Shown: positions 8,822 through 61,492 of the stretch, one piece after another | Layout: every line of letters begins with the position of its first letter | Numbering within the stretch: position 1 is the first letter of the stretch | Assembly (NCBI GenBank): GCA_902793005.1 | Contig: CADBBQ010000005.1 | Span: 1 to 61,532 of the forward strand | DNA length: 61,532 bases | Source: an uncultured Pseudomonadota bacterium | GTDB taxonomy: Bacteria > Pseudomonadota > Alphaproteobacteria > Rs-D84 | Reading direction: 5' to 3' | Program-made: the position numbers and the translations under genes | The notes under the pieces: generated by a model | What the model saw: the letters and a program-made list of their open reading frames with translations, nothing else | Databases searched by the model: none | Told to the model about the DNA's origin: nothing

Positions 8822-9850
8822 ATGATTGAAAAAAATTGGATGACTTTGATTAAGCCAAAAAAATTGAATATCAAGGTCGATGAAAAAAATCCTAATATTG
8901 CAACATTGGTTGCGGAACCATTGGAAAAAGGTTTCGGTTTGACATTGGGGACGGCGTTGCGTCGTGTTCTGTTGTCGTCGTTACAGGGTTGTGCGCCGGT
9001 GTATATCAAAATTGATGGTGTGCAACACGAATTTAGTTCTTTGCCTGGTGTTCGCGAAGATATTTCTGATATCATCTTGAATTTAAAGGGTGTATATTTC
9101 AAAGCAAATGCCGAGGGGCAACACAAGGCAACAATCAAGGCCAAGGGGCCTGTGGTTGTGACGGCCGGGATGATTGAAACATCCGCCGGGGTCGAGGTTA
9201 TGAATAAAGACGTCGAATTGTGCACATTGGACAAAGATGCAACATTTGATATGGAAATCACATTGGATTCGGGTCGTGGTTATGTTGCGGCAAATGCACA
9301 CGATACTGATTTGCCATTGGGTGTGATTCCGGTGGATTCTATTTTCTCGCCAATTTTGAATGTTTCGTCTGCGGTGTCCCAGACACGTGTTGGTCAATCA
9401 ACCGATTATGATAAATTGGAATTGACGGTTAAAACAAACGGTGCGGTTTCGCCCGAAGATGCAATCGCTTTTGCGGCACGCATTTTGACAGATCAATTGG
9501 TTGTGTTTATTAATTTTGAAGATCCGGCACAAATCAATGCACCGGCCGAAGAAGACAAGGCCAAAGATGCATTGCCGTTCGATCCAAAATTGTTGAAACA
9601 CGTTGATGAATTGGAATTGTCTGTTCGTGCAAATAACTGCTTGAAGAACGACAAAATCAATTGGTTGGGTGAATTGGTTCAAAAGACCGAGGCTGATATG
9701 TTGAAAACGCCAAACTTTGGCCGTAAATCTTTGAACGAAATCAAAATCCAATTGGAAGCCATGGGTCTGGGCCTGGGAATGGAAGTTCCTGGGTGGCCAC
9801 CAGAAAATATTGCGGAGTTGTCCAAGAAATACGAAGACCCATACAAATAA
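8822..9850 (+). CDS. rpoA: DNA-directed RNA polymerase subunit alpha
   Basis: 342 aa. [17 protein letters not shown] and the C-terminal-domain motif [18 protein letters not shown]. Confidence 0.97.
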
Positions 9851-9861
9851 AATAATTTCTG

Positions 9862-9955
9862 TGGGTTCTTGTCGTGATTGTTGTTCCTTATGTAGCATTT
9901 GTACACCGCGGAACAACAATCACTTCCAAATAACCTCACATAAATTATTTTCTTG
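9862..9955 (+). repeat. Structured intergenic repeat, copy 1 (14-bp covarying stem with conserved 22-nt loop)
   Basis: GTGATTGTTGTTCC (9874-9887) and GGAACAACAATCAC (9910-9923) are perfect reverse complements around TTATGTAGCATTTGTACACCGC. The element is homologous to the copies at 26645-26913. Confidence 0.85.
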
Positions 9956-17926: not shown

Positions 17927-17983
17927 TTTTCAAAGTTCAGAGTTCAAAGTTCAAAGTTCAAAGTTGCAGTTGTGGTAAAATGT
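17927..17983. repeat. (CAAAGTT)n heptamer element
   Basis: ttttCAAAGTTCAGAGTTCAAAGTTCAAAGTTCAAAGTTGCAGTTGTGGtaaaa lies between two convergent stop codons. Related copies are at 61449-61492 and, shorter, at 10665-10690. Confidence 0.85.
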
Positions 17984-25678: not shown

Positions 25679-26100
25679 TTTATACCCCTTATGTTTCGTT
25701 TGAATTGTATTAAAAATATATGTATTAGTCAAAAAATTACTACTTCGGTTCGATTCCGTCATAAAAAATATGGCTGGCCCGTCTTCGCCAGTGAGTAATT
25801 TCGAATAAAAAAATTTGTTGTGATACAGATGACTATCGTTGACTGCAGTTGCTACGCCGAGGCACTCAATTTTGTTAAGAAAAAATCACCCGTTTGGGTG
25901 ATTTTTTGCTAACCAAAATTGGTGGTGGCTCTGATCGGAATGTAAATTCCCACTCATTTCATTCGTGGGCCCCTTTCGCGTCGTAAGATTCAAACTTCGT
26001 TTCACTCGTTTTCATCAACTATCCGCTCCGAACCTGTGTTCGATTCCGTCTTCGTCAATCCGTAAATAAAAAAACACCCAAAAGGGTGTTTGTTTATTTA

Positions 26101-26185
26101 TGGTGGCTCTGATCGGAATCGAACCGATACTCCTTGCAGAACTTGATTTTGAGTCAAGCGCGTCTACCAGTTCCGCCACAGAGCC
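26101..26185 (-). tRNA. tRNA-Leu (anticodon CAA)
   Basis: The reverse complement folds as a cloverleaf. Acceptor GGCTCTG/CAGAGCC, anticodon arm CTTGA-CTCAAAA-TCAAG, long variable arm, T arm ATCGG-TTCGATT-CCGAT, encoded CCA. Confidence 0.92.
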
Positions 26186-26571: not shown

Positions 26572-26644
26572 CTTATATATCCTTTAATTGCAGGGCATAA
26601 TTTAGAACAAAAATCCACAAAAGTCAAGTATAAATTAAATTTTA

Positions 26645-26913
26645 TGGATTCTTGTCGTGGTCGACGTTCCTTATGTACCATTTGTACACCGCGGAACATC
26701 GACCACTTCCAATAATCTCATAAAATTTAATTTCTTGGCGAGGGCTTTGGATTCTTGTCGCAAAAGTCAAACCTTATGTAGCATTTGTACACTGCGGTTT
26801 GCCTTTTGCTTCCAATAATCTCATAAAATTTAATTTCTTGGCCGAGGACCTGGATTCTTGTCGCGATTGGCGTTCCTTATGTAGGTCAACTACACTGCGG
26901 TTTGTCTTGTGAA
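26645..26913 (+). repeat. Tandem array (about 2.6 units, roughly 103-nt period) of the structured intergenic repeat
   Basis: Units start near 26645, 26748 and 26850. The flanks GGATTCTTGTCG and CTTCCAATAATCTCATAAAATTTAATTTCTTGG and the loop TTATGTA(C/G)CATTTGTACAC(C/T)GC are conserved. The stem arms differ between units but remain complementary. The last unit is degenerate. Confidence 0.88.
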
Positions 26914-35416: not shown

Positions 35417-35492
35417 GGGGTCATAGCTCAGTTGGTAGAGCACCTGCTTTGCAAGCAGGGGGTCGTCAGTTCGAGTCTGATTGGCTCCACCA
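35417..35492 (+). tRNA. tRNA-Ala (anticodon TGC)
   Basis: GGGGTCATAGCTCAGTTGGTAGAGC..CTTTGCAAG..GTTCGAGTC..TGGCTCCACCA. G3:U70 identity pair. Encoded CCA. Confidence 0.95.
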
Positions 35493-35576
35493 CCCTTCGC
35501 GTCTGCGACGCTATGGGTGGCAGGCCACCAATAGTGGTTTGCCAAAAAATTAGTGTCGCGTCGTAGGCGGACGAAG
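35490..35576 (+). other. Conserved tRNA-trailing structured element, copy 1
   Basis: CCACCCTTCGCGTCTGCGACGCTATGGGTGGCAGGCCACC ... CGTAGGCGGACGAAG. It matches 41364-41463, with a compensatory G->A/C->T change in the inner hairpin. Confidence 0.7.
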
Positions 35577-41158: not shown

Positions 41159-41292
41159 ATGTGTTTCCTTTGATTAATAGATATGTATATGATATCACAA
41201 ATGCACTTTTTATACAAAGGTTTTGTTGGTGCGACGGGACACAAAAAATAATTTGCAAAACAGATATAATCGATTATAATGCAGGGCGTCAT

Positions 41293-41366
41293 TGGGGCAT
41301 AGTTTAATGGTAGAACATCGGACTCTGACTCCGCTAGTGTTGGTTCGAATCCAGCTGCCCCAACCA
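41293..41366 (+). tRNA. tRNA-Gln (anticodon CTG)
   Basis: TGGGGCA..GTTTAATGGTAGAAC..ACTCTGACT..GTTGGTTCGAATCCAGC-TGCCCCA-A-CCA. U1:A72 pair. Promoter TTTGCA-17-TATAAT upstream. Confidence 0.9.
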
Positions 41367-41780
41367 CCCTTCGCATCTGCGATGCTATGGGTGGCAGGCC
41401 ACCCGATGCAGAGCAGTGTAGGCGAAGGAGTGTCCACCGTAGCCTTGGCGTAGGCGGACAAGCAAATATGTTTTATGTTTATTTATTAAAAAGCATTTCC
41501 ACCCCAGAACAACGATATATTGGTCAAACTGATGATTTAAAAAAACGGTTAAAAGACCATAATTCCGGATATTCAATACATACGGCAAAATATAAACCTT
41601 GGGAATTGGTAAATTATTTTGCGTTTAGTTCTAAACAGGCCGCTTTGGATTTCGAAAAATACCTTAAAAGCGGTTCTGGTTATGTTTTTTCAAAACGACA
41701 TTTTTGGAAATAGTGTGCCGCGTGAGGAAATCCAGCTGCCCTTTCTTTTTTTTGATTTTTGTTATTGTGTATCGAGGCAC
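41362..41780 (+). mobile_element. Putative insertion into the tRNA-Gln 3' end (structured element plus GIY-YIG gene), flanked by partial tRNA 3'-end repeats
   Basis: AATCCAGCTGCCC of the tRNA (41348-41360) recurs at 41729-41741. CCAGCTGCCCC recurs at 41781-41791, just before a terminator at 41806-41835. Confidence 0.5.
41468..41713 (+). CDS. GIY-YIG nuclease-family small protein
   Basis: 81 aa. MFYVYLLKS..RYIGQTDDLKKRLKDHN (GIY..YIG..R..H.N pattern). The track ORF starts upstream, inside the conserved element. Confidence 0.8.
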   Translation: MFYVYLLKSISTPEQRYIGQTDDLKKRLKDHNSGYSIHTAKYKPWELVNYFAFSSKQAALDFEKYLKSGSGYVFSKRHFWK

Positions 41781-41805
41781 CCAGCTGCCCCCGTCCAAGA
41801 TAGAC

Positions 41806-41835
41806 AAGCCCGCCAACAAAGGCGGGTTTAATTTT
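41806..41835 (+). terminator. Rho-independent terminator (probably the original tRNA-Gln terminator)
   Basis: AAGCCCGCC-AACAAA-GGCGGGTTT followed by AATTTT. Confidence 0.65.
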
Positions 41836-41890
41836 GAAAAACCTCAAAAAATTGGCATTTTCGAACTCTTTGTGCTATAATTCCTATGCT

Positions 41891-61448: not shown

Positions 61449-61492
61449 TCAAAGTTCAAAGTGCAAAGTTCAAAGTTCAGTTGTGGAAAATA
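61449..61492. repeat. (CAAAGTT)n heptamer element
   Basis: ATCAAAGTTCAAAGTGCAAAGTTCAAAGTTCAGTTGTGGAAAA is homologous to 17927-17983. Confidence 0.85.

Follow-up and report, generated by a model that had tools for sequence, protein, structure and literature searches.

What has been inserted behind a tRNA-Gln gene of an uncultured alphaproteobacterium, and did it leave the two partial copies of the tRNA end that lie further downstream? In the 61,532-nucleotide (nt) contig analysed here (CADBBQ010000005.1, hereafter the window), the CCA of a tRNA-Gln(CTG) gene is followed by a structured stretch, which we call the leader, and then by an 81-codon open reading frame (ORF) for a GIY-YIG nuclease. 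Leader and gene together make up a unit of about 350 bases placed exactly after the CCA. Comparison across loci indicates that such units consist of a leader of about 100 nt with or without the gene, which typically encodes 80 amino acids (aa), and that they insert without copying the tRNA end. We propose that the unit is probably a selfish element of the 3' ends of tRNA and transfer-messenger RNA (tmRNA) genes, that it is or recently was mobile, and that it is unrelated to the two tRNA-end copies, here termed relics 1 and 2.

The tRNA-Gln locus

The tRNA gene (41293-41366, with CCA at 41364-41366) is called by both ARAGORN and Rfam, and the ORF (41468-41713) matches the GIY-YIG family PF01541 with E=2e-15. 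The 13-mer AATCCAGCTGCCC at 41729-41741 is identical to positions 41348-41360 of the tRNA, and the 11-mer CCAGCTGCCCC at 41781-41791 to positions 41351-41361, both within the T-loop and acceptor strand. A hairpin at 41806-41828 followed by TTTAATTTT (-16.1 kcal/mol, z=-4.7) has a T-rich tail that reaches 41835. A first-pass annotation of this DNA had placed the tRNA, the ORF, both repeats and the terminator at these positions, and the gene calls, the PF01541 match, the exact repeats and the fold confirm all of them. A chance origin of the three tRNA-end copies is rejected, as the 10-mer CCAGCTGCCC occurs three times in the 61.5-kb window, always in the tRNA-Gln region, against 0.03 copies expected, and none of 100 shuffled sequences reaches three.

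The stretch of about 100 nt between tRNA-Gln and the ORF, which the same annotation had called a conserved structured element, folds better than shuffled sequences (z=-3.5 to -3.9). The window also holds a second leader copy after tRNA-Ala, of which positions 35493-35529 match the first 37 nt of the tRNA-Gln copy (41367-41403), and the two copies differ by a compensatory change in the hairpin GCRTC-TGC-GAYGC. Hairpins H1 and H1b are intact in the tRNA-Ala copy, the 5' arm of H2 is lost and there is no ORF; the next gene is rpsU. The features of the unit and its surroundings are listed here; the hairpins and the insert types b and c are described in later sections.

35493-35575, plus strand: solo leader, partly decayed, directly after the CCA of tRNA-Ala(TGC) (35417-35492)
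41252-41280, plus strand: promoter-like site TTTGCA-17-TATAAT upstream of tRNA-Gln, the sole such site before the ORF
41293-41366, plus strand: tRNA-Gln(CTG) gene with encoded CCA
41364-41394, plus strand: hairpin H1, CCA-CCC/TTC/GCATC-TGC-GATGC/TAT/GGG-TGG (fold -17.5 kcal/mol, z=-3.8; arm covariation)
41367-41467, plus strand: leader, from the first base after CCA to the start codon
41389-41404, plus strand: hairpin H1b, GGGTGG-CAGG-CCACCC, whose 3' arm repeats the junction CCA|CCC
41422-41432, plus strand: 3' strand of P1, GCGAAGG-A-GTG, pairing with (CA)CCCTTCGC at 41365-41374 (minimum-free-energy fold; covarying across loci)
41432-41459, plus strand: hairpin H2, GTCCACC-GTA-GC-CTTG-GC-GTA-GGCGGAC, with a G.A/W.W/A.G internal loop
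41468-41713, plus strand: GIY-YIG nuclease gene of the Slx1/UPF0213 type, 81 aa
41714-41741, plus strand: relic 1, putative type b right-end remnant GTGCCGCGTGAGGAA and 13-nt tRNA copy AATCCAGCTGCCC
41742-41797, plus strand: relic 2, putative type c right part TTTTTTTGATTTTTGTTATTGTGTATCGAGGCAC and displaced original tRNA 3' end
41798-41835, plus strand: native tRNA-Gln trailer and terminator, AGATAGACAAGCCCGCC...GGCGGGTTTAATTTT, the same sequence that follows CCA in empty sites

Linkage to tRNA and tmRNA genes across phyla

Relatives of the protein were collected as the best 80 loci among one-genome-per-species contigs, with a 23-sequence alignment as query. A same-strand tRNA or tmRNA end lies shortly upstream of the ORF in 63 of these 80 loci, typically at a spacing of 77-250 nt and up to about 530 nt in a few. 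With 10-kb flanks, the ORF of 58 of 71 eligible loci is found 80-250 nt downstream of a same-strand tRNA or tmRNA gene, against a fraction of 0.008 predicted from the density of tRNA genes in the same loci, and most loci without a called tRNA still have a tRNA-end relic followed by a leader. Twelve tRNA types are used (Gln, Thr, Pro, Val, Ser, Ala, Asn, Arg, Leu, Cys, Glu and Asp) in addition to tmRNA. The hosts include Alpha- and Deltaproteobacteria, Verrucomicrobiota, Lentisphaerae, Planctomycetota, Acidobacteriota, Omnitrophica, TM6, candidate phyla radiation (CPR) groups and others. Among the carriers are Asticcacaulis taihuensis, Aquisalinus luteolus, Mesorhizobium sp. B2-4-3 and closed metagenome-assembled genomes of Lentisphaeria or Cloacimonadales; the window itself belongs to an Enterousia-like alphaproteobacterium of the rumen.

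The choice of tRNA differs even among close relatives, as proteins of 70-85% identity are found behind Gln-TTG, Gln-CTG, Thr and Pro genes, and 26 of 30 other tRNA genes in the same 20-kb loci have no leader. The first-pass annotation had suggested an insertion-type unit aimed at tRNA 3' ends, and the catalogue of GIY-YIG copies and their flanks in relatives bears this out: about 80% are linked to a tRNA or tmRNA gene and carry the element, in many phyla. In two genomes, cultured or near-complete, the unit is surrounded by chromosomal genes of ordinary kinds, and no integrase (PF00589) is found among the called neighbour genes at the examined loci. A plasmid search with the protein returned no relatives, and 2.9 million viral contigs yielded two; one IMG/VR contig has a tRNA-end relic, leader and ORF in that order.

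Structure of the leader

The leader starts right after CCA, always in the orientation of the tRNA, and follows the plan CCA | NCC-TTC-GC(stem-loop)GC-TWY-GGN'TGG-C-(loop)-GCCANCC ... GCGAAGGN'TG - YCCKCC-GWA-GC-YTYR-GC-GWA-GGMGGR - 5 to 40 nt - ATG. In H1, CCA and the first 3-6 leader nt pair with an internal anti-junction, GGN'TGG, around a conserved 3x3 pyrimidine internal loop (TTC/TWY). The same 5' strand pairs perfectly over a long range with GCGAAGGN' to form P1, so that P1 and H1 are mutually exclusive; P1 frees GGN'TGG, which can then form H1b with a downstream copy of the junction, CCANCC. H1b is conserved elsewhere as GGN'TGGC-loop-GCCANCC. The outer stem of H2 is 7 bp long and is separated from two inner pairs by a G.A/W.W/A.G internal loop with tandem G.A pairs; a tetraloop closes the hairpin. 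Its 3' arm reads AAGGAGG 5-9 nt before ATG in many loci, and H2 would therefore mask the ribosome-binding site.

These pairings are supported by covariation. When H1 was located by rules blind to its arms, all six of six arm positions paired in 45 of 51 loci, with 11 arm types. By the pair counter, 87.5% of H1 arm positions are paired and 35 cells show double changes, where shuffles give 10 (0/500). For H2, anchored on its inner core only, 88% of positions are paired, with 47 double-change cells against 13 (0/500). P1 covaries across loci, including its central triplet (TAC with GTA, GTC with GAC). The TGG opposite CCA is conserved and the adjacent NCC/GGN' covaries; the CCA-TGG pairing itself lies beyond proof by covariation because CCA never varies. 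Variants of the plan include a longer arm (TCCTGC), a permuted order (P1 hairpin, H2, anti-junction) and a minimal form with H1 and H2 only.

A search of the window and eight loci against Rfam 15, at the gathering threshold or E<=10, gave only tRNA and tmRNA matches, with no leader family and no ribozyme. No description of the tRNA linkage or the leader was found in the full-text literature searched, which leaves out most subscription journals. As far as can be found in Rfam 15 and that literature, the leader and the unit are undescribed.

Several candidate identities and pairings were rejected. A weak match to sX4 reflects a family that contains tRNA-Ser. Pairing of GCTWCGG with the CCGWAGC of H2 was dropped for lack of covariation (e.g. 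L040), and the listing of H1-scan matches ruled out the leader NCC as a duplicate of the discriminator plus CC. T-box-like UGGN:NCCA covariation was likewise rejected, because C follows TGG almost invariably, irrespective of the discriminator base.

The CCA rule, solo leaders and arrays

An independent scan of genome contigs with an H1 pattern that omits CCA and fixes part of the sequence gave 127 matches in at least 120 loci. CCA directly precedes 75 of the 127, where about two are expected, and 52 of these 75 follow a gene called by ARAGORN, either a tmRNA or a tRNA of one of 18 named types. Pairing between N' and the first base of the leader is seen in 71 of the 75 CCA-preceded matches, compared with 16 of the 52 chance matches. 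Near-identical leader starts are found in unrelated phyla. The rule extends to genes of other construction: in a TM6 tRNA-Gln gene without an encoded CCA, the final bases of the acceptor form the CCA in front of the leader, and the first G of the leader acts as discriminator; in tmRNA genes of planctomycetes and actinomycetes, the leader comes after CC plus A73.

Most leaders stand alone. An ORF lies within 1.2 kb of only 14 of the 75 CCA-preceded matches, so that solo leaders outnumber those with the gene by about four to one (about 80% of copies). Complete and truncated solo leaders are both common; some are flanked by tRNA genes on either side, and some retain the first codons of the ORF. 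Leaders also form tandem arrays, in which two to five units of about 100 nt lie between the tRNA or tmRNA and the ORF and the later units lack the first 14 or so nt (five units in L037, 972-1500; two in L008, 1256-1500; also L062, L074 and L015). In several loci a partial second leader begins at the stop codon of the ORF. We also note that on an IMG/VR contig (L291, 2960-3000) H1 arms CTAACT/AGTTAG are preceded by CTA instead of CCA, a possible variant flanking triplet.

Presence and absence at the tRNA-Gln site

A metagenome scan for the last 25 nt of this tRNA-Gln found 98 sites, 88 of them informative, and the leader is present at only five of the 88. Empty sites, which the first-pass annotation had proposed to look for, do exist. 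In four (L324, L332, L345 and L391) CCA is followed directly by AGATAGACA.CCCGCC..GGCGGG, which is the terminator of window positions 41798-41835, so that the empty gene end reads CCA+AGATAGAC... A further locus, L083, has the same tRNA-Gln without the unit and an EamA neighbour gene 96% identical; EamA is the downstream gene both with and without the unit.

Occupied sites show the unit in several states at this otherwise conserved position, a presence/absence pattern of the kind seen in homing genes. Besides the window, L310 carries a leader and ORF of the same type, and L392 a leader and ORF without a relic, the next gene starting 4 nt past the stop codon. In L312 the ORF is deleted and the solo leader retains its first 9 nt, ATGTTTTAC. 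The cleanest case is L375: by comparison with L345, a solo leader of 105 nt separates CCA from the native terminator, and no base is duplicated.

The same lack of duplication is seen in the protein-selected loci. No tRNA-end repeat of at least 10 nt follows the ORF within 900 nt in 58 of 62 of them, and local alignment scores of the DNA after the ORF to the tRNA end equal those of mismatched controls. With 10-kb flanks, only four of 62 loci have a tRNA-end repeat of at least 12 nt. Direct tRNA 3' repeats at both ends of the insert, as in integrase elements, are thus absent from 58 of 62 loci and from L375. Insertion 3' of a short fixed sequence without target duplication, as in IS200/IS605 elements, is what is found, the fixed sequence always being CCA.

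Origin of the two tRNA-end copies

Most sites of this tRNA-Gln hold other small inserts, and these account for the relics better than the unit does. Inserts of type b have a terminator right after CCA, then ...GGTTCGA..AGTAG.TTTG..., and GCCGAGGGAAT at the right end; the next 14-21 nt repeat the tRNA from the T-loop up to and including CCA (seen for instance in L083, L033 and L008). Inserts of type c end in ATTATTGTGTATCGAGGCAC followed by a tRNA-end copy (L355 and L356). Right-end motifs of this sort, GCCGAGGGAAT and ATTGTGTATCGAGGCAC, precede both relics in the window, and elements with these right ends occur without a GIY-YIG gene in relatives (L083, L033, L008, L355 and L310).

Window positions 41762-41835 can be aligned to L083 over its right end, its copy of the tRNA end and its native terminator, and they also match the type c right end. 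Relic 2, in which CCAGCTGCCCC is followed by CGTCCA, decayed from AACCA, is therefore best read as the displaced original 3' end of the tRNA. Relic 1 is preceded by GTGCCGCGTGAGGAA, whose counterpart in L310 is better kept as GCCGCCCGAGGGAAT and equals the type b right end. These alignments indicate that the relics at 41729 and 41781 are probably the right ends of other miniature att-type elements and that the GIY-YIG unit did not produce them. If displacement is the work of other elements, the unit can be expected to lie behind a displaced tRNA end, and so it does in L033 and L006. The first-pass annotation had explained the relics by one or two insertions of the cassette itself, each regenerating the tRNA 3' end; this is not supported, since the unit starts after CCA, L375 is clean, 58 of 62 loci have no repeat and both relics carry right-end motifs of other miniature elements. 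A duplicated tRNA end near a small gene is not necessarily the footprint of that gene.

Two further kinds of insert were observed. Behind tRNA-Leu(CAA) (26101-26185, minus strand of the window), a first terminator and roughly 135 nt precede an 18-nt repeat of the 3' end of this gene (TTCCGATCAGAGCCACCA, 25923-25940), after which comes another terminator. The layout of this miniature att-type insert resembles that of the tRNA-Gln inserts of relatives, with the terminator on the left and the tRNA-end copy on the right. A 13-nt repeat near the same gene, GACGGAATCGAAC, was set aside as it forms no T-arm. Another insert, seen after the CCA of tRNA-Gln in L298, L313, L316, L323, L329, L331, L334, L336, L374 and L379, has a terminator and then an inverted copy of the acceptor and T-stem, GGGGCAGCTGGAT; its right part matches window positions 41742-41780.

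The nuclease

The protein belongs to the GIY-YIG superfamily. Y3, Y5, Y17, G19, R27, H31 and E63, which include the tyrosines of the GIY and YIG motifs and the catalytic residues, are invariant in 23 sequences, and an AlphaFold2 model with a mean predicted local distance difference test score (pLDDT) of 92.6 has the strand and helix order expected of the beta-beta-alpha-beta-alpha core. A profile search of the PDB finds 1zg2 (UPF0213 protein BH0048, E=1e-8) and Slx1 (E=1e-7 to 7e-6). Foldseek finds HIGLE and Slx1 at E of about 1e-4, with a template modelling (TM) score of 0.7 and 31-38% identity for Slx1 chains, and a UvrC domain at E of about 0.7. UvrC and I-TevI match poorly by both sequence and fold. 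Sequence profiles and the predicted model thus place the nuclease in the Slx1/UPF0213 branch, and it resembles the structure-specific nuclease Slx1. The RING/zinc-finger domain of eukaryotic Slx1 is absent from this single-domain 81-aa protein, no Slx4 partner is encoded at the unit, and no DNA-binding module is joined to the catalytic domain. PADLOC, PHROGs and NCBIfam searches gave weak domain-level matches or none.

Close relatives number in the hundreds and are mostly 80 aa long, and the wider family has 3,238 cluster representatives at E<=1e-10. The ratio of nonsynonymous to synonymous substitution rates (dN/dS) is 0.02-0.24 among nine clade members, indicating purifying selection; the ORF is full length in 77 of 80 loci, and each 20-kb locus has one intact copy. 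Decayed copies also exist, as truncated ORFs and as nonsense copies. One copy (L231, 7073-7315), from a metagenome-assembled genome (MAG) labelled Akkermansia muciniphila, has TAA at the Tyr5 codon of the GIY motif and is either a pseudogene or a sequencing error; a search for RNA runs that match this MAG found none.

Neither a promoter-like nor a terminator-like site was seen between tRNA-Gln and the start of the ORF, which makes read-through transcription the simplest interpretation. The tRNA is covered by metatranscriptome contigs, and 180 nt of the ORF (41517-41696) by one contig from one run; these contigs show no ends or joints. Comparison of window DNA with metagenome DNA contigs revealed only assembly breaks at the repeats.

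A possible mechanism and its parallels

If the unit is a selfish element, it would lack a promoter of its own and would be transcribed by read-through from the tRNA promoter, with host 3' processing still releasing the tRNA and the insertion remaining harmless. H2 and a processing-linked switch between H1 and P1 would limit translation of the nuclease. At the ends of tRNA genes the nuclease might cut structured DNA; CCA would be recognised through its pairing to the TGG of the leader, like the flanking target in IS200/IS605 elements, and host repair or ligation could then copy the unit behind another CCA. Later loss of the ORF would give solo leaders. In the window, two att-type miniature elements would already have left their remains in the 3' flank of tRNA-Gln by the time the unit arrived there.

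A more specific, guide-like version, in which the logic of IS200/IS605 elements is run by a GIY-YIG nuclease and host repair, is drawn by analogy and we put it forward tentatively, as a possibility that is rather doubtful. Here the leader would act as single-stranded DNA, its RNA-like strand becoming accessible where tRNA genes are replicated or heavily transcribed. The leader hairpins would present the junction to the minimal Slx1-like nuclease, and the TGG of the element would choose the CCA. Alternatively or in addition, leader RNA might direct exact cleavage after CCA, which would make the insertion silent for the tRNA.

The proposed element shares properties with several known systems. 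Like the GIY-YIG homing genes (I-TevI and T4 Seg), it is a small, putatively selfish nuclease gene at a conserved site with presence/absence and decay, and like a group I intron with a homing endonuclease gene it has a structured RNA partner that would make the insertion harmless. In contrast to those homing genes, it encodes a bare catalytic domain of 80 aa and its target is any tRNA or tmRNA end rather than one allele; and unlike an intron, its companion RNA has no ribozyme match in Rfam. The link to homing endonucleases drawn in the first-pass annotation thus stands for the GIY-YIG domain and the presence/absence pattern, but not for the type of nuclease, which is of the Slx1/UPF0213 kind, has no DNA-binding domain and is not I-TevI-like. 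Slx1, HIGLE and the UPF0213 proteins (BH0048, YhbQ-like) are the best sequence and fold matches and share the catalytic residues, but Slx1 has the RING/zinc-finger domain and Slx4 partner missing here, and no tRNA linkage or leader is reported for these proteins in the searched literature.

Islands and prophages with tyrosine integrases use the same target genes, tmRNA included. The att-repeat type of such islands is shared by the relics of the window and the tRNA-Leu insert but not by the GIY-YIG unit, which has no integrase and no tRNA-end repeat and begins after CCA, not inside the tRNA. IS200/IS605 elements and their miniature derivatives resemble the unit in inserting 3' of a short fixed sequence without target duplication, in their end hairpins and in their many gene-less derivatives. 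In these elements the flanking target pairs with an internal guide, and the CCA-TGG pairing is likened to this in logic only. The unit has neither an HUH (Y1) transposase nor TnpB, and its sole ORF encodes a hydrolytic GIY-YIG nuclease. Class C group II introns, which insert behind terminator hairpins, offer a parallel as mobile elements that recognise a structured non-coding gene end and thereby spare the host, but the unit has no reverse transcriptase or intron ribozyme and differs in target and size.

If this reading is right, it would add a very small and widespread class of selfish elements to those that target tRNA and tmRNA ends, a list so far dominated by integrase-borne islands. It would also give a biological context to the UPF0213/Slx1-like mini-nucleases of bacteria, a large family without a known role, and would account for many trailers of 100 nt that follow tRNA genes without annotation. 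With the H1/P1 switch and H2, the unit also offers a conserved fold, of RNA or DNA, in contact with the CCA of a tRNA; this could be relevant to the 3' maturation of tRNAs and to the way in which a bare catalytic domain is directed to its target.

Alternative explanations

Several observations weigh against a mobile unit independent of the relics. In the Enterousia-like clade the ORF always has a right-end remnant of another element within about 50 nt (the window, L003-L005 and L008). Only the right end of such an element follows the ORF, never the left part, and the arrival of the unit may therefore come with loss of adjacent sequence. L106 has a 17-nt tRNA-end repeat and a second leader fragment 1.4 kb downstream. 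In view of this locus and the clade remnants, the unit might have some link to att-type recombination. Any move would need host functions, because a GIY-YIG domain of 80 aa cannot ligate or transfer strands; H1 and H2 could act as RNA or as single-stranded DNA; and the RNA evidence over the ORF is the single 180-nt metatranscriptome contig. Both locus sets, the best 80 by protein and the at least 120 found with H1, come mostly from MAGs. Finally, the strong purifying selection and the apparently stable inheritance at tRNA-Gln(TTG) in several Enterousia-like genomes would also fit a gene useful to the host.

The main rival builds on this last point. The nuclease would be a useful host gene, acting for instance in repair at highly transcribed or structured DNA, expressed from a tRNA promoter and immobile today; the leader would be a cis-acting RNA that controls processing and translation, and the different tRNAs would result from rare rearrangements. 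Such an operon fits the dN/dS values, the intact ORFs in 77 of 80 loci, the high conservation of the protein across phyla and the single intact copy per 20-kb locus. It also fits the ordinary chromosomal neighbours, the lack of a visible promoter and the AAGGAGG of H2 placed 5-9 nt before ATG in many loci. It does not fit the patchy, polymorphic distribution over many tRNAs or the excess of solo leaders. Close strains differ in presence at the same tRNA, with a leader at only 5/88 tRNA-Gln sites; relatives of 70-85% protein identity sit on different tRNAs, and most other tRNAs in the same loci have no leader. About 80% of leaders are solo, tandem arrays, truncated ORFs and nonsense copies occur, and leader starts are near-identical in unrelated phyla. 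We therefore regard a host-kept operon as unlikely, and retain the selfish element as the preferred reading.

A second alternative is the one set out in the first-pass annotation, in which a cassette recombines inside the tRNA, supplies its own 3' end and displaces the old one, here in two rounds. Its best support is local: the two copies of the 13-nt repeat (41348-41360 and 41729-41741) exactly enclose leader, ORF and 15 nt, and L008 (14-nt repeat 50 nt after the ORF) and L106 (17-nt repeat 1.4 kb downstream, with the second leader fragment) offer similar arrangements. This is outweighed by the 58 of 62 loci without a tRNA-end repeat within 900 nt, a count that is unchanged with 10-kb flanks, and by alignment scores equal to those of controls. 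L375 is clean after CCA, no integrase is among the called neighbours, the relics carry right-end motifs of elements that occur without the gene, and in L033 and L006 the unit sits behind a displaced end. We consider such a cassette very improbable. Least probable of all, with hardly any weight in our view, is that the unit is a tRNA-proximal leftover of larger integrase-borne islands, a replacement trailer with no mobility of its own: an island that replaces a tRNA 3' end needs to bring a trailer with it, a terminator right after CCA opens the miniature elements here, L106 has an island-like 1.7-kb insert with leader and ORF on the tRNA side, and one IMG/VR contig joins relic, leader and ORF, but a tRNA-end repeat lies within 10 kb in only 4/62 loci, the neighbours are core genes, EamA follows with and without the unit, the solo leader of L375 is clean and without an island, and relatives number two in 2.9 million viral contigs and none in plasmids. 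The insertion, relic and protein data largely contradict both of these models.

Other repeats in the window

Boxes GAGTTCGAAAGT ... ACTTTCGAAC surround promoter-like sites before genes at window positions 41852-41881, in L083 (2300-2330 and 2915-2945) and downstream in L003-L005. In L083 a 650-nt insert with a 126-aa ORF lies between two repeats of about 25 nt of the GAGTTCGAAAGT/ACTTTCGAAC type. A short tandem motif, (TCAAAGTTCA)n, is present at 17930-17974 and 61449-61479. A repeated element of about 83-103 nt, which matches no Rfam family, occurs at 9847-9929, 26630-26712, 26733-26815 and 26809-26911, with three tandem units near 26.7 kb. Its copies share the flanks GGATTCTTGTC...CTTCCAA and the loop TTATGTAGCATTTGTACACYGC, and form a 14-bp stem with compensatory differences among them (z -3.3 to -5.9).

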